From: a virus
Taxonomy: Duplodnaviria; Heunggongvirae; Uroviricota; Caudoviricetes
Length of the DNA: 13,526 nt
Virus record (IMG/VR): IMGVR_UViG_2713896773_000027
Strand: one strand, 5' to 3'
The translations under genes were made by a program, and so were the position numbers. How positions within the stretch are numbered: the first letter of the stretch is position 1; each line of letters begins with the position of its first letter. Shown here piece by piece: positions 1 to 13,526 of the stretch. Under the pieces are notes generated by a model. It saw only the letters and a list, made by a program, of their open reading frames with translations, was not told the origin of the DNA and ran no database searches.

Positions 1-19
1 CTATTTGATAAATATTAAA

Positions 20-1315
20 TTAATTTTTCATTGCTTCGTTATGGGGCATGGTTGGGGCAAACTCGCTTAACTGTGTATTTAACAAAGCTACCTGTGCATT
101 ATTGTTTTCAGACATCCATTTTCCGTATACCTGAAATACCATTTGCGCATCTGCATGGCCCATCTGGTTTGCTATAAATGCCGGGTTAGCACCAGCTGTC
201 AGCGACCAGCAGGCATAAGTATGTCTCGACTGATATGATTTTCGATGGCGGAGTCCGGCACGTTTTATCGCTGCGTCCCACATCTGCCTTATTGAGTCAA
301 CGGTAAAATGGTCACCATAATTTTTTACTCTCGCTGACACTTCAGGTTGAAAAACAAAGGTGCATTTTTGTTTTTCTGTTCTGCCATACTCTCTGAGGTG
401 AACATCAATGATATGCTCTTTGCTCAGTCTCGTTAATGTCATCTGACTCCGGAGAGCGTCGATTGCTGGCTTAATAAGATGAATGACCCGATTGGTTCCC
501 GCCTGTGTTTTTGGTACCGTGAAACGGTCTTTTGCTAAATTTCTCCTGATCATCATTGTTCCATTTTTCAGATCTATGTCCTCCCATCCAAGTGCACACA
601 GCTCACCAGGGCGAACTCCAGTATAAACAGAAACACACCATAAATTTTTTGCTTGCTGATTTCTGCACGCATCGATAAGACGGATAAATTCTTCCCGCGA
701 AAGAGGATCCGGAATGGTTCTTGATTCCTTTAATGGCGAGATCCCCTTAAACGGATTATCTGCCAGGTAACCGTTATCAACACCAAACTGGAACACGGCG
801 TTAAGATTTGTCATGTAATTATTTACAGTTACAGCCGATCTCCCTGGTTGTGTAACAATATAGTTACTTTTGGGGATCTGGTATCCAGTCAGTAACTCTT
901 TACGAACCTCCAGTAATTTTTCTTTATTAATCGATGAGGCAAGATTTTTTTCACCGATTATGCTCAGGATATTTTTGATGACGGCACGGTATGTGTTGAG
1001 TGATGTTTTGGCGACTTCAGTTTCTTTCAGTGCCAGAAATTTTTCAGCCAGTTCTTTTATGGTTAAATCTTGTCGGGCCTCACCAAATTTTTCCAGATTG
1101 CGTGAGGAGGGAAACTGTTTTGCATAGTCGAAAACACCAGTTTTTATTGCGTAACAAACAGAGGAGCGTAGTTCACCTGCAACGCGCCTGTTTTTTGCTG
1201 TGTCAGGAACCCCCAGATTTTCCCTGACTCTTACGTCTTTATAAACAAACCAGATACGTAATTTCCCTCCATGGTTTTCCACGCCTGTCGGATATTTCAT
1301 TTCAACTTCTCTCAT
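20..1315 (-). CDS. int: phage tyrosine integrase (site-specific recombinase)
   Basis: 431-aa ORF. Tyrosine-recombinase signature segments are visible: GVRPGELCALGWEDIDL (box I Arg), SRHTYACWSL (box II), QMGHADAQMVFQVYGKW (catalytic Tyr region). It sits at the edge of the element next to an excisionase-like gene on the same strand, as in lambdoid int-xis modules. An alternative start at Met6 (MKYPTG) is possible. Confidence 0.9.
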   Translation of the reverse strand: MREVEMKYPTGVENHGGKLRIWFVYKDVRVRENLGVPDTAKNRRVAGELRSSVCYAIKTGVFDYAKQFPSSRNLEKFGEARQDLTIKELAEKFLALKETEVAKTSLNTYRAVIKNILSIIGEKNLASSINKEKLLEVRKELLTGYQIPKSNYIVTQPGRSAVTVNNYMTNLNAVFQFGVDNGYLADNPFKGISPLKESRTIPDPLSREEFIRLIDACRNQQAKNLWCVSVYTGVRPGELCALGWEDIDLKNGTMMIRRNLAKDRFTVPKTQAGTNRVIHLIKPAIDALRSQMTLTRLSKEHIIDVHLREYGRTEKQKCTFVFQPEVSARVKNYGDHFTVDSIRQMWDAAIKRAGLRHRKSYQSRHTYACWSLTAGANPAFIANQMGHADAQMVFQVYGKWMSENNNAQVALLNTQLSEFAPTMPHNEAMKN

Positions 1316-1334
1316 TAGTTAGTGTGGCTTTTAG

Positions 1335-1586
1335 TCAAGTAAGATGACGTCTTGGTCTCGCTGATGCCTGGCGCTCAATCCAGCGATCAATTTCTTCCAG
1401 GTTGTAAAAGCATGGACTGTTATCCCATGGCATACCGTCATGAGCGACATGCTTATATTCCCTTCCTTCCATAAACGATTTTTCCCGGGCCTTTTTTAAC
1501 GTACCTTTTTTTATTCCTTTCAGCGCAATTAACTGCTCTTCGGATACCCATTTGCCGGGAGAGACAATCATGATTACTTCGCTCAT
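1335..1586 (-). CDS. xis: excisionase-like small DNA-binding protein (Xis/AlpA-like)
   Basis: 83-aa ORF immediately upstream of int on the same strand. It is small and basic with a helix-turn-helix-like segment (LIALKGIKKGTLKKAREK) followed by a Trp-containing wing (EEIDRWIERQ). Position and size fit a recombination directionality factor; no homology search was run. Confidence 0.6.
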   Translation of the reverse strand: MSEVIMIVSPGKWVSEEQLIALKGIKKGTLKKAREKSFMEGREYKHVAHDGMPWDNSPCFYNLEEIDRWIERQASARPRRHLT

Positions 1587-1658
1587 CGATTTCTTTATCT
1601 CTTACATCAGACGAGCGCCGGTTGCAGAATACCAGTCACAACCGGCGACAGTTGAACA

Positions 1659-3290
1659 TTAAGAATCAGCCTGACTCGGGATCAGTTTTTGCCAGATAAC
1701 TGAAACGTATTTTGCCTGGTAACGGGCGTCATCAAGTGCATTATGGCGCTCACCTTCGAATGGAATAGCCGTTCTGGCATCGAAGTCTATGGCTTTCCCC
1801 AGCTCAACGATTGTGCGTACATCGCGATCGTTGTAGTAACGCCACGGGCAGGGGATCCCCTGCCGTTCGTATGAACGGCGCAAAATCGTGTTGTCGAAGT
1901 TGGCTCCATTTCCCCAAACCTGAACAAAAAATTCACCGGAGTTTTCGTCGATAAATTCTCGCAATTGTAACAGTGCATCATCTAACGGGATTTCATCGGT
2001 CATAATGGCAGATTGCGCTTCGCGTGATTGCTTAAGCCACCATTTAATGGTGTCCCGATCAATGACTCCGCCAGCAGTTTCCAGATCGATAGTCTTACTA
2101 AATTCCGGTCCCATATCTCCGGTTTGCGGATCGAAAAATATTGCACCTATTGAGATGATCGGGGCATCAGGATTTTTTCCCATGGTTTCAAGGTCGATCA
2201 TTAGATGGTCACACGTCCTGCTGGTGGATGTGATTTCGTGATGACCGTTCACCTTAATTGGGTGATCTGCCGTCTCGCCAGTTTCATTATCGCTATTGTG
2301 ATGCTGATTGCCGCCAGTGTTCTCCTTGTGTGGATGTTCAGCGCCTTCCATTTCCTCCGGATCATCTTCCTGAACTTCAACCTGATACTCTTCATCGAAT
2401 GTTTCTTGGTATGTTGCGTCGCCCATCACCGCGCCACAATCAGGGCAGTTGCCGCCGCCGGTCTGACCGCAGGCGGTGCAGACTTTTTCCACTTCCTGTT
2501 GCGCTACTGGTTCAGGCTGTTTCGTTTCTGGCTCGTTTTGTAACGCATTTGGACTGTTTTGTTCCGCTTTTTGGTAGTTCCGTTCCGATTCATGCTGGTT
2601 CTGGTTCACAGAATCGCGGGTCTGGAGCCCCTTAACCCATTTCGGATCATTCGGGTCACTAATCCCTTCAACAAATTCACCACGTGATGCAGCAAGCAAC
2701 TTATCGGCGTCAGGCTGGCTGATATTGGCTGCCTGCATAATTTTGTTTACTTCGTCAGCGGTAACTTTTATCGGCTCTGGTTGTTCTGAATCTTCAGCGG
2801 TATCTACATTTTGCGGTAAGCCCGTGTATGTGCCATTTTTTCGGGCAAAATATTCTTCTTTTGTGATTTCAGTGGCGCCAGCAGCCAGTGCCTTATCCAG
2901 ACCAGAGAGTTTGTTTGCGCGACCGTATTTTTCTCCGTCCTTATCTGCGAAGAGGAAATAGAACGGCCCCTCACGCTCTACAGATGGTTCAGCTTCCGGC
3001 GCGGTTTCATTTTTTGGGATATCAGATACCTCAGTTTCCACTGCATCAGTTTGTGTTTCTGATGACTGGAGAACATCAACAGTGCCCAGGTCTGTTTCTT
3101 CATTCTCAAACACGCCCTTTGTCGTCAGGTATTCGCAGATATATTTGTTCAGTGCTACGGGATCTTTGTGAATGTCGATCGGACGCTCACGGACAAGGCC
3201 AAAAATAGTTTGGCGGTCGTAGCGAAGGGCATCAGGCTGTTTGCGCATTGATGCCGAGATACGCTGAGGTAGCCTGAGTTTAACGGACAC
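1659..3290 (-). CDS. prophage exonuclease with C-terminal DnaQ-like (DEDDh) 3'-5' exonuclease domain and central Cys4 zinc-ribbon; probably 5'-truncated
   Basis: 543-aa ORF. The C-terminal third carries the three exonuclease motifs: Exo I MIDLETMG, Exo II VWGNGANFDNTIL, Exo III HNALDDARYQ. A Cys cluster CTACGQTGGGNCPDCG lies mid-protein. It occupies the position of recombination exonucleases in lambdoid early-left operons. The apparent GTG start at 3288-3290 lies inside the inferred IS3-family inverted repeat (3265-3290), and the first ATG (3246-3248) has no Shine-Dalgarno, so the native 5' end is probably lost. Confidence 0.7.
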   Translation of the reverse strand: MSVKLRLPQRISASMRKQPDALRYDRQTIFGLVRERPIDIHKDPVALNKYICEYLTTKGVFENEETDLGTVDVLQSSETQTDAVETEVSDIPKNETAPEAEPSVEREGPFYFLFADKDGEKYGRANKLSGLDKALAAGATEITKEEYFARKNGTYTGLPQNVDTAEDSEQPEPIKVTADEVNKIMQAANISQPDADKLLAASRGEFVEGISDPNDPKWVKGLQTRDSVNQNQHESERNYQKAEQNSPNALQNEPETKQPEPVAQQEVEKVCTACGQTGGGNCPDCGAVMGDATYQETFDEEYQVEVQEDDPEEMEGAEHPHKENTGGNQHHNSDNETGETADHPIKVNGHHEITSTSRTCDHLMIDLETMGKNPDAPIISIGAIFFDPQTGDMGPEFSKTIDLETAGGVIDRDTIKWWLKQSREAQSAIMTDEIPLDDALLQLREFIDENSGEFFVQVWGNGANFDNTILRRSYERQGIPCPWRYYNDRDVRTIVELGKAIDFDARTAIPFEGERHNALDDARYQAKYVSVIWQKLIPSQADS

Positions 3291-3591
3291 TCCTTCCTGA
3301 AATAGAATGGCATCAGAAGGAGCTAATAATGAGCAGAAAAACCCAACGTTACTCTAAAGAGTTCAAAGCCGAAGCTGTCAGAACGGTTCTTGAAAATCAA
3401 CTTTCGATCAGTGAAGGCGCTTCCCGATTATCTCTTCCTGAAGGCACTTTAGGACAATGGGTTACCGCCGCCAGAAAAGGGCTCGGTACTCCTGGTTCCC
3501 GCACGGTGGCTGAACTGGAATCTGAAATTCTGCAACTGCGTAAGGCGTTAAATGAAGCTCGCCTTGAGCGAGATATATTAAAAAAAGCAAC
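3265..3591 (+). mobile_element. IS3-family insertion sequence remnant (IS600-like), left end plus truncated orfA; interrupted by IS30
   Basis: The terminal sequence TGAGGTAGCCTGAGTTTAACGGACAC (3265-3290) starts with TG and ends with GGACAC like IS3-family left inverted repeats. It is followed after about 40 bp by an orfA-type ORF. The element stops abruptly at 3591, where the IS30 inverted repeat begins. No orfB or right inverted repeat is present in the window. Confidence 0.6.
3329..3591 (+). pseudogene. IS3-family transposase OrfA (IS600-like), truncated after codon 88 by IS30
   Basis: Translation MSRKTQRYSKEFKAEAVRTVLENQLSISEGASRLSLPEGTLGQWV...LERDILKKAT has the helix-turn-helix plus leucine-zipper layout of IS3-family OrfA. 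A Shine-Dalgarno AGGAG sits at 3318-3322. The last nucleotide of the final in-frame codon (ACT, Thr) is the first base of the IS30 terminal repeat. The 134-aa ORF on the track is an artefact running into IS30 and the N-run. Confidence 0.75.
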
Positions 3592-4595
3592 TGTAGATTC
3601 AATTGGTCAACGCAACAGTTATGTGAAAACATGGGGTTGCGGAGGTTTTTTGNNNNNNNNNNNNNNNNNNNNNNNNNNNNNNNNNNNNNNNNNNNNNNNN
3701 NNNNNNNNNNNNNNNNNNNNNNNNNNNNNNTAAGCGGGCTGTAGCTCACCTGACACTGTCTGAGCGCGAGGAGATACGAGCTGGTTTGTCAGCCAAAATG
3801 AGCATTCGTGCGATAGCTACTGCGCTGAATCGCAGTCCTTCGACGATCTCACGTGAAGTTCAGCGTAATCGGGGCAGACGCTATTACAAAGCTGTTGATG
3901 CTAATAACCGAGCCAACAGAATGGCGAAAAGGCCAAAACCGTGCTTACTGGATCAAAATTTACCATTGCGAAAGCTTGTTCTGGAAAAGCTGGAGATGAA
4001 ATGGTCTCCAGAGCAAATATCAGGATGGTTAAGGCGAACAAAACCACGTCAAAAAACGCTGCGAATATCACCTGAGACAATTTATAAAACGCTGTACTTT
4101 CGTAGCCGTGAAGCGCTACACCACCTGAATATACAGCATCTGCGACGGTCGCATAGCCTTCGCCATGGCAGGCGTCATACCCGCAAAGGCGAAAGAGGTA
4201 CGATTAACATAGTGAACGGAACACCAATTCACGAACGTTCCCGAAATATCGATAACAGACGCTCTCTGGGGCATTGGGAGGGCGATTTAGTCTCAGGTAC
4301 AAAAAACTCTCATATAGCCACACTTGTAGACCGAAAATCACGTTATACGATCATCCTTAGACTCAGGGGCAAAGATTCTGTCTCAGTAAATCAGGCTCTT
4401 ACCGACAAATTCCTGAGTTTACCGTCAGAACTCAGAAAATCACTGACATGGGACAGAGGAATGGAACTGGCCAGACATCTAGNNNNNNNNNNNNNNNNNN
4501 NNNNNNNNNNNNNNNNNNNNNNNNNNNNNNNNNNNAGTTCAAAACACCGAAAGAGATAATTGAAAGGGGTGTTGCATTGACAGATTGAATCTACA
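3592..4595 (+). mobile_element. IS30 insertion sequence; interior contains two N-runs (3653-3730, 4483-4535) that are assembly gaps of non-native length
   Basis: The ends are imperfect inverted repeats: left TGTAGATTCAATTGGTCAACGCAACAG (3592 onward), and the reverse complement of the right end (to 4595) is TGTAGATTCAATCTGTCAATGCAACAC. The internal ORF translates to the IS30 transposase sequence as I recall it. The flanks (..GCAAC | GTGTTG..) show no 2-bp target duplication. Confidence 0.85.
3732..4588 (+). CDS. insI: IS30 transposase (DDE family), visible portion; true start codon lies inside the first N-run and a mid-gene stretch inside the second
   Basis: The frame opening at 3732 reads KRAVAHLTLSEREEIRAGLSAKMSIRAIATALNRSPSTISREVQRNRG... 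and after the second gap ...KFKTPKEIIERGVALTD, ending at a TGA (4586-4588) inside the right inverted repeat. This matches the IS30 transposase. The interruptions are Ns, not mutations, so this is not necessarily a pseudogene. Confidence 0.85.
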
Positions 4596-4622
4596 GTGTT
4601 GTATTGTATAAATAGAGTACAT

Positions 4623-4664
4623 AAAGCCATCAATATTTCTATCGATGGCTTTATCTTTTTATTG
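4623..4664. terminator. hairpin (13-bp stem with one mismatch, 4-nt loop) followed by a T-run; likely terminator downstream of the tail-fibre assembly gene, possibly bidirectional
   Basis: AAAGCCATCAATA-TTTC-TATCGATGGCTTT (4623-4652) followed by ATCTTTTTATT on the + strand. On the - strand the same stem lies just after the tfa stop codon (4659-4661). It is 28 bp from the IS30 right end. Confidence 0.5.
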
Positions 4665-5237
4665 CGGGGCGACTGGCCACTCAACATCCGCTGCTACTGC
4701 TGTATCAACACGATTCAACAATACCCGATATGTCTTCCATGCAGTCAGTAACGATGCCTCTTCCTCCGTCGCAATATCCAAATCTACGGCATCCTGAAGT
4801 GGCGCAATATGCTCACTGGCCATCTGCATCAGGCTGTTTTTTGTTTCTTCCGCCTTCCGGATCCGGAACAGTTTTTCTGCTTCTGCATCTTTCACCCAGG
4901 CTGTGCCGTTCCACTTCTGAAACTCCCCTTCCGGGGATAACCAGGTGACATTTTCCGGTAATGGGCCAAGTTCAGAAATAAATAACGCGTCGCCGGAAGC
5001 CACGTCATAGACGGTTTTTCCCCGATGGTCTTCAACGAGATTCCACGATGCCTCATCACTGTTGAAAACGGCCACGAAGCCAGCCGGAATATCTGGCGGG
5101 GCAATATCGGTACTGTTTGCAGGCAGACCTGTATGAGGTGGAATGTATGCATCACCTTCACCAATAAACTCATTGGTTCCAGCCAGTAGATTATAAATTT
5201 TTATGGTCCGTGATTGTTCACTCATTCTGAATGTCAT
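4659..5237 (-). CDS. tfa: phage tail fibre assembly protein (Tfa / Mu U / P2 G family chaperone)
   Basis: 192-aa ORF. Its ATG overlaps the upstream tail-fibre stop by one base (TAATG), a classic Stf-Tfa coupling. The N-terminal region ([38 protein letters not shown]...) and size are typical of the Tfa family. Confidence 0.9.
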
Positions 5238-6853
5238 TATGCAAGCCTCACAATATAGTTAAATGCGATGTTTTTTACGGTGTTTTCTTCGTTACCCGTA
5301 GCGTTAACGGTGATGGTGTGTCCGTGGGGACCAATAATGACAGAATGGGCATGAGCACCAATGCCGATAGTGTGGTTATGGGCACCGATATATACATTGT
5401 GAGCATGCCCTCCTGCGCTCGACGTGGTACCAGTACCTAACGCAGCGTTATAACCGGCTGATACACCATTCCCCGCGCCAGTGTGACCAACAGGTATATT
5501 GTGTGAATGAGCTCCTGCGCTATTTGTGGTTTTTGTGCCGTAATCAAATGAACTGGTCGTTTTAGTACCGTAATCAAACGACGATGTGGTTTTCGTCCCC
5601 AAATCCGTACTGGATGCACTGGCGCTGTGGGTGTGCGATTTAATGCCGTCCTGTTCCTGAGACAATACTGCACGACCACTGGCGGGCTTGCCCTTAATCG
5701 TCCAGCTACGCATATCAGGGATCACACCTGACGGATAAGCGGCTGCAAGTTTCGGGTATGCAGATTTGTCAAAAGTCTGCCCCTGCATCAGGGCATAACC
5801 AGACGGAACGGTATCTGATGGCCAAGGGATCGGTGCGCCAACCGGATAAAGTTCATGCGGCGAAATATACAGCGAATAAACAGAACCGTCCGTTAATCCT
5901 TCCGGCTTATTAGCAGAATATGCTGGTGAAGTATGAATCGTTACGCTGGCATTACTGGTATAATCCCATTGAATATTTACACCAGTCGCATAATTTCCAA
6001 TAGCAACGTAAATATCGTAAGTGTCACCAGAAGTATTGACCCACGCAAAATTTGTAAACCCTGCCGATGTGCGCTGCCATAAAGCTCCAGTAATCCCCTT
6101 CGGATTACCGTTACCTGCACGCAAAACAAGTTCAGATATACCTGCCTGTTGAGGTGACCCCACGTTAAATCCCGCGCCACCAATCAACGTAATTGAAACA
6201 ACAGAACTTGCCTGCGGCATGGTTACAGTTGCCAGCTTGAACCATCCTGCACCACCACTAAAAGACATTGTTGTGGAGTTGATTGTGCCTATAGACCGTG
6301 GGTTAAGTTCAATATCTTTAGAACCATCAAACGAGACGCCATTGATAGCACATGCTGTCTGCAACTTGGTCGCTGTAGCCGCATTACCAGAGGTGTCCTG
6401 ATTCCCTTTGGCATTGACGCCGGGAATTGAATCTTTTGACGTATAGACCTGCGCCCATTCAGACCAGTTGGCAGAATCAGTATCCCGCCGCGAACGGATA
6501 TGTACGGGCGCATGGGCACCGCTCGTGCCACTCCAGCCAATGAATAACTCACCTTCGCCAGCAGCGGTGGCACCTTTAAGGTGAAGCACATTGCCATAGG
6601 GGGAAGGGTAGCCATTGTTGTATGCCTCATACAGCTGAATCCCGGATGTTCCCTGTGCATTCGCCTCCAGGGCCGTTACGCGACCGCGAGATACCAGAGT
6701 ATTGATATTAATGTCAGCCGAACCATCGAACCTGACGCCATTAATGTTTCTGGCTGTTTTTAATTTCGTCGCGGTGTCGGCGTTCCCCGCCAGCGCCCCG
6801 GTGATCCCACCGTTGAAAGTCTGGCGTGCACTCCATGTGTTAGCCGTGCTCAA
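5237..6853 (-). CDS. phage tail fibre protein, C-terminal variable (receptor-binding) cassette without its own start; reading frame stays open upstream through the crossover site to about 6931
   Basis: Contains two copies of the phage tail-fibre repeat ([26 protein letters not shown] and [28 protein letters not shown]), tandem [10 protein letters not shown] repeats, and C-terminal HxH repeats (HSHN, HAHN, HNHT, HAHS, HGHT). The listed start is a TTG chosen by the ORF finder. Translating upstream in frame gives ...[15 protein letters not shown]... with no ATG and no Shine-Dalgarno, consistent with a silent Sv'-type segment of an invertible host-range region. Confidence 0.85.
5528..5599. repeat. 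approximately 30-bp imperfect tandem repeat (about 2.4 copies) inside the tail-fibre coding region
   Basis: GGTTTTTGTGCCGTAATCAAATGAACTGGTC / GTTTTAGTACCGTAATCAAACGACGATGTG / GTTTTCGTCCCC on the + strand, encoding the [10 protein letters not shown] repeats on the - strand. Confidence 0.5.
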
Positions 6854-6883
6854 CAGGGGGATCTTTTCACCGCTTGTGCCAAG

Positions 6884-6909
6884 TTCTCTTAAACCAAGGT
6901 TTAGGATTG
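6884..6909. other. hix/gix/cix/pix-like 26-bp crossover site for the adjacent serine invertase
   Basis: TTCTCTTAAACC-AA-GGTTTAGGATTG is an imperfect palindrome with a central AA. By my recollection of hixL (TTCTTGAAAACCAAGGTTTTTGATAA) it matches at 19 of 26 positions. It overlaps the last codons of the invertase gene and lies in-frame within the upstream extension of the tail-fibre cassette. No second copy was found in the window. Confidence 0.6.
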
Positions 6910-7461
6910 AAATGATGACGCCGGAAACTTCTTATAAAGCGTGGAAACAGCCACATCATAGATGATTGCAACCTGCTTACGGGGGATGCCCTTCTCGAGC
7001 AATCGCCGCATTTGCTGCCATGTTTCTTCTTGGTATTTAGGCCGACGCCCACCTATACGACCTTCTGCGCGAGCTGCATCAAGTCCAGCGCGTGTACGTT
7101 CAACGATAAGCTCACGTTCCATTTCTGCCAGCGCCCCCATTACGTGAAAGAAAAAGCGCCCCATTGGTGTACTGGTGTCGATGGAGTCAGTGAGACTCCG
7201 GAAGTTAATGCCTCTGTCACGCAGCTCTTCCACCAGCACAACTAAGTGACGCATGCTGCGCCCAAGACGATCTAACTTCCATACGACTAGGGTGTCACCT
7301 CTGGAAAGCATACGGAGAACCTTTTTTAACCCAGGGCGTTCAGCCTTTTTGCCGCTCGCCTTGTCCTCAAAAATTAGCTTACATCCTGCGCTTTCAAGGG
7401 CATTTCGTTGTAAAGCAGTGTTTTGTTCATTTGTTGATACGCGTACATAGCCAATTAGCAT
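6901..7461 (-). CDS. pin: serine-recombinase DNA invertase (Hin/Gin/Cin/Pin family)
   Basis: 186-aa ORF starting [27 protein letters not shown]... with the catalytic Ser in the YVRVST motif, a resolvase/invertase catalytic domain ([16 protein letters not shown]...) and a C-terminal helix-turn-helix ([22 protein letters not shown]). It is very close to the E. coli Pin sequence as I recall it. The symbol denotes family membership, not a confirmed ortholog. Confidence 0.9.
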
Positions 7462-7588
7462 ATTTTCTGCTCACCATAGTTATTCATAGCAAGCTGCGGA
7501 TTTTAATTAACAGAAACCAGTGTGTGTGGAAATCACAAAGTGCATACCGTGCCCCAATGATGTTTTATTGAAAAGCGGGGTTACTTTA

Positions 7589-7870
7589 ATGTTTGATTTA
7601 ACCATATTTTTTATAACCATCCTTGGAGGCGTGCATTCGTTTCTGAATGGGGTTCGTGAAAAACGTTACGAAGCGTCATGCAGGCAATTGATGGCCGAGT
7701 GTATTGCTGCCGTACTTGCAGGCTTTATAGGCATGTATTTCGCGGAATATAAGGGTATGGATGAAAGTCTTCAGAATTGCGTGACTATTATTTGCAGCAT
7801 CAATAACAGGCTCATTCTTGAAAAGTTACAAAGGATTATCGATTCGTACCTCAGTAGCAATGCCTCTTAA
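7589..7870 (+). CDS. small membrane protein with two predicted transmembrane segments; holin-like (hypothesis)
   Basis: About 93 aa from the ATG at 7589; the track's GTG at 7520 has no Shine-Dalgarno. Hydrophobic stretches LTIFFITILGGVHSFL and CIAAVLAGFIGMYFA. Paralogous to the next ORF (GG..TFL..VR-D/E..; AGxxAxxLG motif). Function is inferred from size and topology only. Confidence 0.55.
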   Translation: MFDLTIFFITILGGVHSFLNGVREKRYEASCRQLMAECIAAVLAGFIGMYFAEYKGMDESLQNCVTIICSINNRLILEKLQRIIDSYLSSNAS

Positions 7871-7937
7871 GCAACAAATGACCGGTTGAGAAGTTACTTT
7901 GCATACCATTACCTCCTGACAACGTAGGAGGGAACTT

Positions 7938-8267
7938 GTGCTTGACACACAGGAATTAGCTCCAGTTGCTATTGCGCTCCTGCTTTCAGTAATTGGTGGG
8001 ATAGGCACGTTCCTGATGGATGTCCGAGACGGTCGCCAGTCTGGCAATTTGTTGGGATTGGTTACGGAGATCTTTGTTGCAGTGACAGCTGGCGCGGTGG
8101 CGTACCTATTGGGGCAACACGAGGGCTGGGAGTTATCAATTACGTACTTAATGGTAACGATAGCCAGCAATAACGGTCATGAGGTGATTTCAGGGATGAA
8201 ACGAGTGAATATCGATAGCATTCTGAATGTTCTTACAAGTTTGGTGAAAAAGGGAGGCGGGAAATGA
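7938..8267 (+). CDS. small membrane protein with two to three predicted transmembrane segments; holin-like paralog (hypothesis)
   Basis: 109 aa. GTG start preceded by a strong Shine-Dalgarno AGGAGG (7925-7930). Hydrophobic stretches VAIALLLSVIGGIGTFLM and IFVAVTAGAVAYLLG. Its stop overlaps the next gene's ATG (ATGA). Confidence 0.7.
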   Translation: MLDTQELAPVAIALLLSVIGGIGTFLMDVRDGRQSGNLLGLVTEIFVAVTAGAVAYLLGQHEGWELSITYLMVTIASNNGHEVISGMKRVNIDSILNVLTSLVKKGGGK

Positions 8268-8707
8268 TTGGCTGGGGTGTATGCGTTCTTGCGTTAGCCT
8301 TAGCCGATCGCTATTTGCTAAAACGCAAGGACATCACGCATTTAGAACTTGGTGATGTGGAAATTAAACCGGGTTTCATCCGGGTGCCGTTCAAATACCG
8401 GTCTAAATTCCCGTTTTTGCGCGGCGCAACAGTCAGATATTGGATCCGCGATGTTCAGAAGCCGACGACAGTGATTGAAGGCGAACAACGTTGTTTGACG
8501 TCGGCTGAACAGGGCGAAAACAGTGAATGGTTGTACATACCCACTGAATATATGGGTAAAGGAGAGCGACTGTGGCATTTCAACGTCATGGTTACGCATG
8601 GCGACTCGTTCATTAACCCGTTGTATCGGATTTTCCCTGTTACTCAGCAAATCCGCAGAAGTTACGTAATAAATCTCGCACAGGATGTGTCAGATGACGA
8701 AAAATAA
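8264..8707 (+). CDS. hypothetical protein with N-terminal signal-anchor-like hydrophobic segment
   Basis: 147 aa. ATG preceded by GGGAGG, overlapping the upstream stop. N-terminus MIGWGVCVLALALADRY is hydrophobic. No recognisable catalytic motif by eye. Confidence 0.65.
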   Translation: MIGWGVCVLALALADRYLLKRKDITHLELGDVEIKPGFIRVPFKYRSKFPFLRGATVRYWIRDVQKPTTVIEGEQRCLTSAEQGENSEWLYIPTEYMGKGERLWHFNVMVTHGDSFINPLYRIFPVTQQIRRSYVINLAQDVSDDEK

Positions 8708-9296
8708 GTATGCAACGGTCGATTTTGACCAGGTTAATGAAAAGGGGCTGAAATCCCTTATCGCGGCGATCAATAAAACCGGGGTTACGGTAATTGAGGT
8801 TGACTCCAGCAACCGCGCAACAACGAAAGATGGCGTTAAAGTTAAAACCGCAAAGCTGGTTCTTAACGACGGACAAATCCTTGCCATACAGGTAAACGAT
8901 ACTGGCGATATATCGTCTGTGAAACTGAATGGAAAAGCTATTCCTAACGCTCAGTCGCCGGATATCAAGACGCTTGGTACCGTCATGGGACAGGCGGCCC
9001 GCAAAAACTCCGCAAAATTCCAGAAATCACTGATCGCCAAAGCGAAGCGTGTAGCCAATCCGGTAGACAAGAAACCGGCAGTTAAATCCAACTTTCAGCG
9101 CCTGCAAGAAGCAAAACAGCGGAATGCTCAGGTGGTTGCCGCTTATAAGTCCGCGCAGAATTCGGTGTCTTTCAATCAACAGCAGATCACTGATTTGCGG
9201 GCGAAGCTGGATAAGGAGACGGGCCGACTCAATAACGAAAAGGCACGGAATGGCGAACTCAAACGTCGTCTTAAGCAACTGAAAGCAGGAAATTAA
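8694..9296 (+). CDS. hypothetical protein; N-terminal domain shared with the next ORF plus C-terminal basic coiled-coil
   Basis: About 200 aa from the ATG at 8694 (Shine-Dalgarno AGGA at 8682-8685); the track start at 8685 is less likely. The start overlaps the upstream gene's end. Shares LNDGQILAIQ ... KNSAKFQK with the next ORF. C-terminus is rich in K/R/Q/E heptad-like sequence. Confidence 0.7.
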   Translation: MTKNKYATVDFDQVNEKGLKSLIAAINKTGVTVIEVDSSNRATTKDGVKVKTAKLVLNDGQILAIQVNDTGDISSVKLNGKAIPNAQSPDIKTLGTVMGQAARKNSAKFQKSLIAKAKRVANPVDKKPAVKSNFQRLQEAKQRNAQVVAAYKSAQNSVSFNQQQITDLRAKLDKETGRLNNEKARNGELKRRLKQLKAGN

Positions 9297-9297
9297 C

Positions 9298-10329
9298 ATG
9301 GAACAGTTCAATATCAATAAAGGGGTGACGATCAAGCCTGGGCTTGACGTGCTTCCCCCGCCAGTGACTGATGATGAATATCGCGCATTAATGGCCGGTG
9401 AGGACCGCTATCTGATGACGGAATCCAACACCCTGGAGGAAATCGAGGCTACGTTCTTCTATGACACGCCGATCCACTGGTGTGCTACGGATTTACTGGA
9501 GGCGATTAGTTCTACTCGTTTGCAGTTACACCGGACCATGCAGGCATTTGTCCGGGCATTGAACCAGAAGCTGAATGGCACCGGAATCTCTGCGGGGAGT
9601 GATAAAACGGGGGATGTGGCCCAGAGCGGCGCGCGCGCGATCGGCGGTGCTGAAATTGGCCGGGCACGGAACGTTAACGGGCTGCCGGTCCTGCCAGCCA
9701 TTATTCCGCTCAGTGATGGTCAGACTATCAGCATTCTGTTTCATAGCCCGACAGCGGAAAACCGGATCACCAATAGCGATACGCTGGTTGCTTTCCAGTT
9801 CTTACTGAATAAAAAAGACGTTACTCACACCGTTGCTCCGATGAGTGGACGTGATATGACGCTGGCGCAGGTCACCATGAAACTTGCCAACCTTGCAGAG
9901 AAAAACTCGGCAAAATTCCAGCGTGCGCAGAAGAAGAAAAAAGCCCTGGTTGATGAAATAACCCAACTACAGGCTGACAGTGACCAGAAAGAGGATGCCA
10001 TGAGCGACCTCGCGGATCAGGTGGCAGCGGTAGAAGGGCAGAAGGTAGATCTGGAGCAGAAAATTAACGCTGTTGCATCGGAAGCGGATTCTCTTTATGA
10101 AGAGAATGAGCGTTTGCAGACGGAGATTGATCAGCTCAATCGCACTGGTGGGCGCGAAACCATTGCTCCTGCGGGGATGACTGGTGGACACTCTCGCGCG
10201 ATGACGGATCGCCTTGCAAGTATCAAAAATCGTATGCATATGAACGGGGAAGTGACGCTCAGTAATGGTGCATCAATGAAGCAATTCATTGAGGACGGTG
10301 AAGGGTATATCCAGTTAACTGGGATGTGA
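9298..10329 (+). CDS. hypothetical protein, paralogous domain (DGQ...KNSAKFQ) plus long acidic coiled-coil
   Basis: 343 aa. ATG one base after the upstream stop, Shine-Dalgarno AGGA at 9285-9288. Motifs LSDGQTISIL and EKNSAKFQRAQKKKK. Coiled-coil segment LVDEITQLQADSDQKEDAMSDLADQVAAVEGQKVDLEQKINAVASEADSLYEENERLQTEIDQL. Confidence 0.8.
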   Translation: MEQFNINKGVTIKPGLDVLPPPVTDDEYRALMAGEDRYLMTESNTLEEIEATFFYDTPIHWCATDLLEAISSTRLQLHRTMQAFVRALNQKLNGTGISAGSDKTGDVAQSGARAIGGAEIGRARNVNGLPVLPAIIPLSDGQTISILFHSPTAENRITNSDTLVAFQFLLNKKDVTHTVAPMSGRDMTLAQVTMKLANLAEKNSAKFQRAQKKKKALVDEITQLQADSDQKEDAMSDLADQVAAVEGQKVDLEQKINAVASEADSLYEENERLQTEIDQLNRTGGRETIAPAGMTGGHSRAMTDRLASIKNRMHMNGEVTLSNGASMKQFIEDGEGYIQLTGM

Positions 10330-11714
10330 AGACGCTGGATAAACAGGTTGATGTAACTCCCGATGAAGATGCTGTTATGCAGAAAATCAGTGGTGGCGTC
10401 TCCATCGCCGGGATTAACGACATCATTTCCTGTGACGATTTCTACCGTTTCCAGCAGCGCGGCATGATCAAAATCACTGACTCATACGGCGTTCAGACTA
10501 CAGAGTCAGGCTATAGCATTGATTTTGTTGGTACCTATACGGACCCACTGAAGCATGCGGTTTACCCGGATCGCCGTGACGGCGCGCTGAAGTCGTCAAT
10601 TGCAAAATGGGTGCTTGGTATGATGTCGGAAGGGAATAACCGCCAGATCCGTTCGGCAGAAACATTCCTGGTTGAACTGTTTGGCTCCAATTATGGCGAT
10701 GTAATCGCGTCATACGGAGATACGCTATCCCCTGAAGCAATTCAGGAGAAAATAGCGGATGCGATCGCCAGAATGCCGGAAAAAACAAGCCAGGGGGCTA
10801 CTCGTAACGGGGATTCTGAACTTGAAGTCACCAATGCCATTTTCGGTACCAATGAGTTCCGGGCGTCAGATTATGAGATCACCACAGCACAGTTTGGCAC
10901 CATTGGCATTTACAGCAATAAAGCCGAGATCAAGCAGGCAATGGACGCAGCAAGCGCGCGCATCGCAGCAGAACGGGAAGCCAATCTGAATCATGCAGTC
11001 GCCGCACTGACTCAATCGTGGGTAACAGCAATCAGGGAGGCCGCCACCACAGGGAAAATCACACCTGCAATTGCGGATGTCGTAAACGACGGCTCTAAAT
11101 TTATGGATGCCTATCAAATGGATGCGGTGCAGTTGCCATCAGCCTATGGCCAACTCAGCTATCGCATGACCTACAACCTGGTATCAATGTTTACTGACCT
11201 TGCCATCCTTGGGCTGGTGGACCTTAACGAGGTTACGCCGGAATTACTCAGCATGCGCAAGAATCATGTTGAGATATTGCAGAGAATTAACACGGTTCTT
11301 GCCGGGCGCACCGATGAAGAGAAACAGGCCGACGCTGATCGGATAAACCTGGCCCTAGGCAACATCACGGAGGAAGAAATTGCCGCCAGAAACGAGAAAC
11401 AAGAAGAGTTATCATCAATACAGGGTGATGCCACCAGCATAGCTCAGTCTCTTGGGCTGAATTATCGCGTATCCACCGCCGACCTGAAGATGATGTACGC
11501 ACCAAAATTCGCCGCTGGCGAGGTATTTGGGCTTCAGGAAGCCTCCGGCATGAAAGGGGTTCTTTTCCGTGCGAAAGACGCAATCAAGGCGAAATTCGGC
11601 GCTCGCTGGTTGCCAGCGAAGGCGAAGAACAGCGACTTCCCAGGTAACTGGTGGATTATCGAGACAAAACACAACGTGGCGGACGTTCTGGCCGTCATCC
11701 AACAATACGCATAA
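10326..11714 (+). CDS. hypothetical protein (462 aa), translationally coupled to the upstream gene
   Basis: GTG start overlapping the upstream TGA (GTGA). Long uninterrupted ORF. No Walker, nuclease or other catalytic motif recognised by eye. Confidence 0.8.
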   Translation: MKTLDKQVDVTPDEDAVMQKISGGVSIAGINDIISCDDFYRFQQRGMIKITDSYGVQTTESGYSIDFVGTYTDPLKHAVYPDRRDGALKSSIAKWVLGMMSEGNNRQIRSAETFLVELFGSNYGDVIASYGDTLSPEAIQEKIADAIARMPEKTSQGATRNGDSELEVTNAIFGTNEFRASDYEITTAQFGTIGIYSNKAEIKQAMDAASARIAAEREANLNHAVAALTQSWVTAIREAATTGKITPAIADVVNDGSKFMDAYQMDAVQLPSAYGQLSYRMTYNLVSMFTDLAILGLVDLNEVTPELLSMRKNHVEILQRINTVLAGRTDEEKQADADRINLALGNITEEEIAARNEKQEELSSIQGDATSIAQSLGLNYRVSTADLKMMYAPKFAAGEVFGLQEASGMKGVLFRAKDAIKAKFGARWLPAKAKNSDFPGNWWIIETKHNVADVLAVIQQYA

Positions 11715-11720
11715 CAGGAG

Positions 11721-11738
11721 CGCCCGGTTCGCCGGGCG
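11721..11738 (+). promoter_or_regulatory. intercistronic GC-rich stem-loop with TTCG tetraloop between a Shine-Dalgarno sequence and the next start codon
   Basis: CGCCCGG-TTCG-CCGGGCG. AGGAG (11716-11720) lies immediately 5' of the stem and the ATG at 11748 lies 9 nt 3' of it. There is no U-tract, so it is unlikely to be a simple terminator. Confidence 0.5.
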
Positions 11739-11747
11739 TCGCATAAT

Positions 11748-12188
11748 ATGGCCACATTATCTGATACAATAAAACCGAATAAAACATATCTTGAGGCGGT
11801 GCTGCGTACGGCGTTGTTAGGAAAGACAGAAGACGAATACGTTGATTTCTTCCTGTCAGGGCTACGCGGGCGATTACTGAAAAATCCCCGCCTGTACCGC
11901 AGCTATGGTCCATACTGGCCGGAAATTAAAAAATTATTACTGGAGCGCGGTTATGGTAATTTCGGTCGTCTCGTTGACCGTGACGTTCGCAAAATTTACC
12001 GTTATGACCGTCCGGCGCTGACGCTCATAGCCGCGACGCTCTACAGCCAGGAGCGTTTTGATAATGGTCAGATATACTCAGCCTGGCATTTACTGCCAGT
12101 GCCTGAAGAGGTTGACGACCAGGACTATGAGTTTGAGTCTTACGATTTGGAAGTTGAAGCCTTGGCACAGGCTGGAGAGAAAACTTGA
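11748..12188 (+). CDS. hypothetical protein (146 aa)
   Basis: ATG start 9 nt after the stem-loop. Acidic C-terminus (EEVDDQDYEFESYDLEVEALAQAGEKT). No recognisable domain by eye. Confidence 0.7.
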   Translation: MATLSDTIKPNKTYLEAVLRTALLGKTEDEYVDFFLSGLRGRLLKNPRLYRSYGPYWPEIKKLLLERGYGNFGRLVDRDVRKIYRYDRPALTLIAATLYSQERFDNGQIYSAWHLLPVPEEVDDQDYEFESYDLEVEALAQAGEKT

Positions 12189-12433
12189 AGAAGCGATACT
12201 ACACAGTAAAGCATGGGACGCTACGAGCATTGCAAGAGTTTGCTGATAAGCATAACGTTGAGGTGCGCAGGGAAGGGGGAAGTAAAGCTCTGCGCATGTA
12301 CCGTCCTGACGGAAAATGGCGGACGGTCGTCGATTTCAAAACTAACAGTGTTCCCCAGGGCGTCCGCGACCGGGCATTCGAAGAATGGGAGCAGATCATC
12401 ATAGATAACGCATTGCTTCTGAACGCTGATTAA
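12185..12433 (+). CDS. small basic hypothetical protein (82 aa), translationally coupled
   Basis: TTG start overlapping the upstream TGA (TTGA), with Shine-Dalgarno GGAGAG at 12171-12176. Last gene of the co-directional string before a hairpin. Confidence 0.6.
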   Translation: MKKRYYTVKHGTLRALQEFADKHNVEVRREGGSKALRMYRPDGKWRTVVDFKTNSVPQGVRDRAFEEWEQIIIDNALLLNAD

Positions 12434-12443
12434 TAATCATTTA

Positions 12444-12464
12444 AAGCCCATATGATATGGGCTT
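12444..12464 (+). terminator. hairpin (10-bp stem AAGCCCATAT / ATATGGGCTT) separating the coupled operon from the AT-rich downstream gene; weak U-tract
   Basis: A perfect inverted repeat is seen directly. It is followed by AAACAACAGG on the + strand, so intrinsic terminator function is uncertain. It coincides with a sharp shift in base composition. Confidence 0.4.
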
Positions 12465-12515
12465 AAACAACAGGATCGATATACAGTGTTAGTTAAATAT
12501 ATAGGCGAGAGTTAT

Positions 12516-13526
12516 ATGGAAAAACCTTGGCCGGGCATGCACATTAGAACATCTTGTCTGGAGGATGGTTTCTTTAGAGCAACGCAACCAAAGTATCTTA
12601 ATGATCCGTCGAGTGAGTCGCGACTTCTTCCATTTTTTAATAAATTTTCACCAGCCGATTACGCATGGGCTAGAAATGAATTTAAGAAAATGCAACGAGA
12701 TCCATCTTATGTCCCATCTATACAAGAGTTAGAGTATTATTTAAAACCTTGCGGGAAACGATACGGAGAGGATTTTCCACACTTGTTAATCAATGAAGGT
12801 TTTACCTCAATGGATTCATATGATGAATCTAAACTCCAAGAAATAGTAACGTACCTTAACGATTATTTAGTAGAAGCCGTAAGCTGTCATCTTGGTGTAT
12901 TCTCTCTATCAAAAAGTGATTGCAATCTACACATGTGGACTCATTATGCATCGATAGGAAAGGGGTTTGCTGTAGTTTTCGATGAAACACACGATTTTTT
13001 CAAAATATATAGGCCGTGTGATGTTAGTTATAATCCAGAAGATAGAGCATCTGTAACCTATTATAAAGGCGCTGTGCGATTTAATGGCTATCCTGCGCCA
13101 TCGAGGAATATAGATATAAAGAATAAAGATAATACATTGCATGGGATCTTAAATCGAGATTCAGTTCGCGAGCTTTTTATTAATAGGCTCCTTTATACAA
13201 AAGGTGAAGAGTGGCTTCCTGAAAATGAAAGTAGAATTATTTTTCCTTTAGCTGATTGCGAGAGAAAGATAGGAAGTATTGTCTCTCCATCGATTGATGA
13301 TTGCCTATTAAATGAGTATCCTGATGTTTTTCATGACTATCATGAAATTAACTTAAAGAAAATTCCTTTTTCTGCATTCAAGCAAATTACCTTAGGGTAT
13401 AACATGACTGAAAAAGATAAAAATATAATTTTAGATAAAGTTAGTTCGAATAAAGAATTGTCTCACGTCAACGTATTACATTCAAAACTTGATATATACG
13501 GAAAGGTTGTGGTTAAGCCCATGTAA
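12516..13526 (+). CDS. AT-rich orphan protein of unknown function (about 336 aa); candidate horizontally acquired accessory or defence gene
   Basis: ATG at 12516 with GAGAG 5 nt upstream; the track's GTG at 12486 is less likely. The ORF ends exactly at the window end (TAA). Visibly lower GC than all neighbours. Contains CHLGVFSLSKSDCNLHMWTHYASIGKGFAVVFDE. No known catalytic motif recognised by eye. Confidence 0.8.
   Translation: MEKPWPGMHIRTSCLEDGFFRATQPKYLNDPSSESRLLPFFNKFSPADYAWARNEFKKMQRDPSYVPSIQELEYYLKPCGKRYGEDFPHLLINEGFTSMDSYDESKLQEIVTYLNDYLVEAVSCHLGVFSLSKSDCNLHMWTHYASIGKGFAVVFDETHDFFKIYRPCDVSYNPEDRASVTYYKGAVRFNGYPAPSRNIDIKNKDNTLHGILNRDSVRELFINRLLYTKGEEWLPENESRIIFPLADCERKIGSIVSPSIDDCLLNEYPDVFHDYHEINLKKIPFSAFKQITLGYNMTEKDKNIILDKVSSNKELSHVNVLHSKLDIYGKVVVKPM

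Follow-up and report, generated by a model that had tools for sequence, protein, structure and literature searches.

The lydC-lydA-lydB holin/antiholin genes of a P1-like phage in a defective P1 remnant

We identify positions 7589-8707 of the 13,526-nucleotide stretch of DNA analyzed here (hereafter the window), with a probability of roughly 0.94, as lydC-lydA-lydB of a P1-like phage (Punavirus) lying in a defective P1 remnant. These are already characterized P1 genes for a holin, a second holin and an antiholin; they are real but ordinary. Specifically, three consecutive ORFs are found on the plus strand (93, 109 and 147 aa, starting with ATG, GTG and ATG, respectively; Table 1), and their products share 84/93 (LydC), 109/109 (LydA) and 145/147 (LydB) residues with the P1 proteins (NC_005856). 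This identity to P1 genes rules out that the ORFs arose by chance. It also bears out the initial annotation, which had given P1 LydA and LydB as about 109 and 147 aa; the lengths are exact. A 116-aa reading of the first ORF from a GTG at 7520 was dropped because the P1 and RefSeq start is the ATG at 7589. The lydB ATG (8264) overlaps the lydA stop codon (8265-8267) by 4 nt (ATGA) in an arrangement identical to that in P1, and lydB sits directly downstream of lydA and is translationally coupled to it, as expected of a member of the LydB family.

The resemblance to P1 extends to both sides of the three genes. Hdf is identical to its P1 counterpart at 201/203 positions and the first 343 residues of DarA at 332/343 positions, with no match beyond. 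When window positions 7400-12500 were compared with phage records by megablast, P1, P7, SJ46, JL22 and others matched at 97.4-97.9% over 7400-10319, and the P1-type records under this match annotate cin, lydC, lydA, lydB, hdf and darA. Synteny with the curated P1 record holds, including cin, cixL and the late promoter LPdar.

Table 1 Features of the window and the P1 counterpart of the three genes
Feature	Position	Strand	Description
P1-derived left end	4596..6853	minus	U' (tail-fibre assembly) 4659-5237; Sv' 5237-6853
cixL recombination site	6887..6906		Identical to P1 cixL
cin, DNA invertase	6901..7461	minus	Resolvase and HTH_7 domains; divergent from lydC; syntenic with P1 cin
lydC	7589..7870	plus	93-aa two-TM holin, LydA paralog; upstream of late promoter; monocistronic in P1
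LPdar, P1 late promoter of the dar operon	7891..7909	plus	-22 box AAGTTACTT 7891-7899; -10 TACCAT 7904-7909
lydA	7938..8267	plus	109-aa holin, GTG start
lydB	8264..8707	plus	147-aa antiholin (LydA antagonist)
hdf	8685..9296	plus	Next dar gene; DarA_N domain PF18788; phrog_1620; 201/203 to P1
darA'	9298..10329	plus	First ~341 of 639 P1 darA codons; stop 10 nt past deletion junction
Deletion junction	10316..10319		Microhomology TAAC (4 bp); joins P1 ~28802 (darA) to ~11867 (darB)
'darB	10320..11714	plus	3' terminal fragment; 97.7% to P1; phrog_1685 positions 1805-2278 of 2278
ulx	11748-12188	plus	P1 gene after darB; phrog_1629 Ulx-like
lxc	12185-12433	plus	P1 gene after darB
P1 counterpart of lydC-lydA-lydB	NC_005856.1 record 30414-31532		Head of dar operon

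LydC and LydA are 27% identical over 84 aa (BLASTP, E 2e-12) and share a Pfam and a PHROG family, confirming that the two small ORFs are paralogs as had been noticed from the sequence. Both score just above the gathering score (28.4 bits) of PF16083 (LydA holin; Phage_holin_3_3), LydC with 29.0 bits and LydA, identical to the protein on which the family was founded, with 30.1 bits, and both match phrog_1527 ('holin'; E 4e-38 and 4e-49, respectively). The two hydrophobic helices proposed for each small protein correspond to two stretches per protein that exceed the Kyte-Doolittle 19-residue threshold, i.e. residues ~1-23 and 29-54 in LydC (maxima 1.71 and 1.90) and ~1-31 and 35-60 in LydA (2.16 and 1.88). 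The C-terminal 40-50 residues of both proteins are charged and, on this Kyte-Doolittle basis, LydC and LydA have the architecture of class II holins. In P1, LydC has been described as a second canonical holin of 93 aa with 29% identity to LydA; its gene is monocistronic and has a predicted early promoter of its own, immediately ahead of the dar operon. Either gene, lydA or lydC, is lethal to E. coli when cloned, LydA together with Lyz causes cell lysis, and the behaviour of LydA and LydC is that of canonical large-hole holins, LydD being the pinholin (PMC9025707). Lethal permeabilization and endolysin-dependent lysis should transfer directly from P1 to the LydA of the window, which is identical to P1 LydA. 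By inference, the same function would carry over to LydC, which has nine substitutions relative to P1 clustered at residues 2-10, 23 and 89-90; the lydC allele departs from P1 in the ribosome-binding region and in codons 2-10.

The 147-aa protein matches PF16084 (LydB, LydA-holin antagonist) with 344 bits over positions 1-147/147 and phrog_1898, which PHROGs describes as lysis determining protein. Together with the PF16083 matches of LydC and LydA and the identity to P1, this supports the holin/antiholin cassette that the initial annotation had proposed. That reading can be refined in one respect: the two paralogs, LydC and LydA, are both holins, and the antiholin is the 147-aa protein (PMC9025707). 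P1 phages with a lydB amber mutation lyse prematurely, and addition of lydB to a lyz-lydA plasmid delays lysis (PMC9025707); LydB has also been described as essential in P1 (PMC12894885).

How LydB relates to the membrane has been reported differently: one paper describes it as lacking both a predicted TM domain and any functionally characterized homolog (PMC9025707), the other as a single-TM antiholin (PMC13577005). The N-terminus of LydB in the window, MIGWGVCVLALALA, has 14 uncharged residues, then DRYLLKRKD, and with a KD19 of 1.62 this stretch is borderline for a membrane span; to that extent the hydrophobic N-terminus ascribed to the 147-aa protein is confirmed. In the AF2 model (pLDDT 89.4), a helix comprising residues 2-19 is combined with a beta-sandwich (Ig-like). 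A word-indexed search for relatives returned P1-like proteins only, with at least 49% identity, and a profile search of 1.84 billion representatives returned 60 proteins at E <= 0.001. In an alignment of 41 full-length members with 23-100% identity to the window protein, the uncharged N-terminal stretch was present in all 41 (10-24 residues, median 15) and in each case closed by an invariant D/E-R, with a basic cluster behind it; KD19 exceeded 1.6 in 30/41. As a working hypothesis, we picture LydB as a protein-binding module tethered to the membrane, with its short N-terminal helix in the inner membrane and its Ig-like beta-sandwich in the cytoplasm; we place the sandwich in the cytoplasm because the basic residues come after the helix (positive-inside rule). 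From there, the sandwich would restrain LydA by protein-protein contact and could hold the C-terminal tail of LydA. The family-wide combination of helix, D/E-R and Ig-like sandwich provides a concrete picture of how this antiholin may work that lends itself to testing, and the conservation of the N-terminus bears directly on the disagreement between the two recent papers over a membrane anchor.

In P1, lydA-lydB head the late dar operon, the other genes of which function in antirestriction and capsid morphogenesis (PMC9025707). LPdar, between lydC and lydA, is base-for-base identical to the P1 promoter (annotated at 31212-31230 of the NC_005856 record). A promoter and terminator scan of 7400-9400 gave promoter sites no more often than in shuffled sequence and no terminator; upstream of lydC, this simple scan gave only one weak promoter site (7434-7461). 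P1 late promoters require the phage activator Lpa and differ from sigma-70 consensus sites, so that a scan for sigma-70-like sites is not suited to them. Both ORFs after lydB contain a DarA_N domain according to Pfam and are assigned by PHROGs as Hdf-like and DarA, respectively. The operon is incomplete in the window: hdf is intact, darA stops after ~341/639 codons (RefSeq annotation 'internal head protein, incomplete, missing C-terminus'), and neither ddrA nor ddrB is present.

The end of darA coincides with a deletion, which we mapped by a three-way alignment and by the BLAST end points (window 10319 and 10316). The similarity to P1 that covers 7400-10319 ends at 10319, and from 10316 on the window continues, at 97.7% identity, with the P1 darB 3' end and, behind it, ulx and lxc. 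Thus, ~16.9 kb of P1 are missing, including ddrA, ddrB, hxr, isaB, IS1, isaA, ssb, lyz, lydD, lydE, pro, prt and most of darB. Beyond the junction, a 462-aa ORF from a GTG at 10326 is a mechanical ORF only and lies within 'darB (RefSeq annotation 'helicase, incomplete, missing N-terminus'). By their sequences, the 343-aa 'DarA' ORF and the 462-aa ORF represent what is left of darA and darB on either side of a single deletion. The missing interval also accounts for the missing endolysin. As the initial annotation had observed, the window holds no lysozyme, endolysin or spanin: ten window ORFs scanned against Pfam gave no match to lysozyme, endolysin or spanin families, and for the other ORFs identical E. 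coli records give the annotations integrase, excisionase, exonuclease, IS transposase, tail-fibre protein and tail-fibre-assembly protein. In P1, Lyz is a SAR-endolysin, lyz-lydD(-lydE) make up a late operon that is not linked to lydAB, and the spanins are encoded at a third location (PMC9025707). A lysis-control cassette without an adjacent endolysin is therefore a known, if atypical, arrangement in P1; in the window, the endolysin is absent because lyz, lydD and lydE are unlinked from lydAB and were removed by the 16.9-kb deletion, so that the complete P1 lysis system is not present here.

The left side of the P1-derived DNA is also disrupted. IS30 abuts it at 4595/4596; from 4596 onward, the window is 99.1% identical to a 97-kb P1-like plasmid (NZ_CP009051), and positions 1-4595 are 100% identical to an integrase/excisionase/3'-5' exonuclease region ending in IS30 that is present in many E. 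coli chromosomes. Sv' represents the variable C-terminal part of the tail fibre, and the constant N-terminal part is absent. A search of the window for a second cix site with up to three mismatches gave none, and cixL was the sole match. Because of the deletion junction, the IS30 boundary, the single cix site and an Sv' without the constant part, the copy of lydCAB described here is, judged from the sequence, part of a defective, IS-bounded P1 remnant.

Parts of this remnant recur elsewhere. Among 5426 complete E. coli genomes, the darA'/'darB junction is present in three, i.e. in the chromosome of NCTC9040 and in two plasmids of ~117 kb, and the lydC-lydA-lydB stretch is present in 335 of the same genomes, almost always on plasmids. 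An exact look-up located the 343-aa DarA' stump in 755 index blocks; on the contigs inspected, its context was usually a Rep3/ParAB plasmid backbone with adjacent encapsulin and DyP peroxidase genes and IS1 flanks. The left end of the remnant varies between copies and lies at 4643 (NCTC9040), 7803 (inside lydC) or 7972 (inside lydA). The IS1 breakpoint at 7803, which removes lydC, is found in most other copies, and the one at 7972, which takes away the first 11 lydA codons and LPdar, in some; otherwise, the copies are 99.9-100% identical. In NCTC9040 and the plasmids sharing the junction, the flanks consist of IS elements and non-P1 plasmid genes. The present window is the longest version of the remnant seen. 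No record among complete E. coli genomes and PLSDB plasmids covered at least 80% of it by megablast, and an exact 40-mer spanning the IS30/P1 junction had no match in genome_contigs. Segments with 100% identity point to E. coli or a close relative as the probable source. We also considered wide conservation of the junction as a hint of domestication and rejected it, given its presence in only 3/5426 genomes and the different IS1 erosion points between copies. The erosion pattern, as it appears from these comparisons, is progressive IS decay of recently spread debris and not conservation of holin genes.

With respect to function, LydA and LydC would act as established for P1, i.e. as two-helix inner-membrane holins that accumulate in the membrane and then permeabilize it, killing the cell; LydB, made from a start overlapping the lydA stop, would delay LydA triggering. 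lydA-lydB would be transcribed as the first genes under LPdar (LPdar-lydA-lydB-hdf-darA...) with lydC as a separate upstream unit, and in P1 the muralytic partner Lyz and the pinholin LydD come from the unlinked late operon. We infer that the cassette alone cannot lyse a cell in situ because lyz, lydD and, within the window, the late activator are missing. Because LPdar needs the P1 late activator, the cassette is probably transcriptionally silent, possibly with the exception of lydC, which might be transcribed from the sigma-70 early promoter predicted for it in P1. A co-resident or infecting P1-like phage could switch on the cassette in trans, and a complete P1-like plasmid could coexist in the source genome and supply Lpa and Lyz.

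We considered whether the window might instead derive from an intact, inducible P1-like prophage or phage-plasmid with a normal lysis-timing module, in which lyz merely lies outside the 13.5-kb window. In P1, lyz is ~10 kb from lydAB and, thus, beyond a window of this size, and lydC, lydA, lydB and hdf are all intact and LPdar is unchanged. However, darA runs directly into the 3' end of darB and nothing of the lyz region is left between them, the tail-fibre genes border on IS30 and a chromosomal int/xis module at 4595/4596, only a single cix site is present, the constant tail-fibre part is absent, and NCTC9040 and the junction-sharing plasmids have IS elements and non-P1 plasmid genes as flanks. 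An intact phage is therefore highly improbable.

We attach equally little credence to the idea that the remnant now serves for defence or as a toxin module, co-opted with LydA and LydC as effectors and LydB as the antidote, in which, for example, the activator of an infecting P1-like phage would turn on LPdar and cause mistimed lysis. The initial annotation had suggested a toxin or abortive-infection module formed by the cassette and the downstream operon; this was not upheld, as lydB is followed by hdf and a truncated darA, both of them P1 head/antirestriction genes, and the PADLOC scan was negative. Specifically, LydC, LydA, LydB, Hdf and Ulx had no match among PADLOC models at E <= 0.01, which led us to reject the cassette as a known defence system, and only an unrelated DUF2971 gene matched a candidate system (PDC-S31). 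That this candidate defence gene lies within the same remnant, that cloned lydA or lydC kills E. coli (PMC9025707), and that the remnant persists, with the exact DarA' fragment in 755 index blocks and repeatedly on a single plasmid backbone, all speak for co-option. Yet, IS1 has removed lydC in most copies and the lydA start and promoter in some, which argues against selection on the holins; with copies 99.9-100% identical, persistence may reflect only recent spread, and the junction is found in only 3/5426 complete E. coli genomes. Similarly, there is only a very slim chance that the remnant as a whole (LPdar-lydA-lydB-hdf-darA'-'darB-ulx-lxc-DUF2971) is retained through interference with incoming P1-like phages. 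Such interference would require that the phage's late activator acts on the resident LPdar to yield extra holin and antiholin and, consequently, mistimed lysis resembling abortive infection, to which the neighbouring DUF2971/PDC-S31 gene might add. We conclude that lydC-lydA-lydB in a defective P1 remnant is by far the favoured reading; no observation spoke against the identification of the genes.

The P1 organization, with two paralogous holins, a separate antiholin and an unlinked endolysin, has already been described and dissected experimentally. Our analysis suggests that such ORFs in chromosomes or non-P1 plasmids are to be read as debris of P1-like phages and not as a new toxin module, and that the 343-aa 'DarA' and the 462-aa 'helicase' that recur in databases, with PHROG families of their own, are products of a single deletion junction.

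Among known systems, P1 itself (and P7, SJ46, JL22 and p15B) carries the same set of genes in the same order, with the same overlaps and late promoter, between cin on one side and hdf-darA on the other. The window copy differs from P1 in that only a truncated darA remains, joined to the 3' end of darB, lyz-lydD-lydE are deleted, and the C segment is cut by IS30 and adjoined by a chromosomal integrase region. Phage T4 likewise has an antiholin, RI, that is distinct from its holin, T, and combines a hydrophobic segment at the N-terminus with a globular domain that binds T; RI acts in the periplasm by means of a SAR-type N-terminus. In LydB, by contrast, the position of the basic residues after the helix would keep the sandwich in the cytoplasm by the positive-inside rule, and LydB and RI share no sequence or specific fold relationship. 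Lambda S105/S107 and SRRzRz1 resemble the P1 system in that an antiholin delays the triggering of a small membrane holin; however, the lambda holin gene itself gives rise to the antiholin by alternative translation and the lambda holin, endolysin and spanin genes are contiguous, whereas P1 has a separate gene for its antiholin, an unrelated 147-aa protein, and an unlinked endolysin operon (PMC9025707). Finally, the pinholins S68 of phage 21 and LydD of P1 are, like LydA and LydC, small two-TM lysis proteins, and they cooperate with a SAR-endolysin; LydA and LydC differ from the pinholin LydD, which is absent from the window, in being canonical large-hole holins (PMC9025707).

A single junction with TAAC microhomology, which joins darA to the 3' end of darB in the remnant (the defective piece of a P1-like phage in the window), yields two stumps, one of DarA (343 aa) and one of DarB (462 aa). 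Databases treat this deletion debris as protein families: the DarA stump has its own PHROG family, phrog_26978 (exact fragment, 343/343), as does the DarB stump, phrog_21829 (exact fragment, 462/462), and 755 contig-index blocks record the former.

The remnant meets a chromosomal prophage region at the end of an IS30 element at 4595, and runs of masked N (3653-3730 and 4483-4535) break both the IS3-family orfA fragment and the IS30 transposase gene on this side. Many E. coli chromosomes carry segments 100% identical to the prophage region at 20-3290. The 543-aa protein of this region is acidic over a long N-terminal stretch and contains a CxxC...CxxC motif as well as the exonuclease domain, with a weak DEDDh match in PADLOC (E 1e-5).

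Features of the window outside the lyd genes
Feature	Coordinates	Strand	Remark
Integrase, prophage-type	20-1315	-	
Excisionase-like ORF	1335-1586	-	83 aa
543-aa protein	1659-3290	-	C-terminal DEDDh 3'-5' exonuclease domain
IS3-family orfA fragment	3329-3733		
IS30 transposase gene	from 3786		
U'	4659-5237		
Sv'	5237-6853		
cix site	6887-6906		single
cin invertase gene	6901-7461	-	intact
Deletion junction (TAAC microhomology)	10316-10329		stumps span 9298-11714
DUF2971 protein gene	12486-13526	+	346 aa; PADLOC PDC-S31 match

To the right of IS30, the invertible C segment is present only as an orphan half (4596-7461). Because the window holds no second cix site and the constant part of the tail-fibre gene is absent, Sv' and U' are not expressible as in P1; for want of that second site, Cin likewise has no substrate pair within the window.

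Among the lysis genes, the ribosome-binding region and codons 2-10 of lydC form a short patch (7550-7619) that diverges strongly from P1 between flanks ~99% identical to P1, which suggests that this lydC is a mosaic allele. LydC is the main difference reported between P1 and P7 (PMC9025707). In LydB (8264-8707), as throughout the 41 aligned full-length family members, the N-terminal hydrophobic helix ends in an invariant D/E-R, after which comes an Ig-like beta-sandwich (AF2 pLDDT 89.4). Published descriptions of LydB contradict each other, giving 'no predicted TM domain' (PMC9025707) and a 'single transmembrane domain' (PMC13577005).

Other copies of the remnant (L005-L012) are flanked on both sides by IS1 copies and have as neighbours a Rep3 replication gene, ParA/ParB, encapsulin (Linocin_M18), DyP peroxidase and a formate-dehydrogenase-like gene. 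About 8 kb from the remnant, L007 also has phd/doc-like genes and a gene of the P1 Lpa family (PF25716), which means that some of the remnant's hosts keep more P1 functions.

Immediately 3' of lxc, the DUF2971 gene is clearly AT-rich (GC 0.32-0.38 versus ~0.5 upstream), and in PADLOC its product matches PDC-S31, a candidate defence system (E 3e-16). The gene may be alternative defence cargo of P1-like phages: P1 has the EcoP1 res/mod genes in this slot, and certain P1 variants, e.g. MH422554, have a DUF2971 gene there, as in the window.
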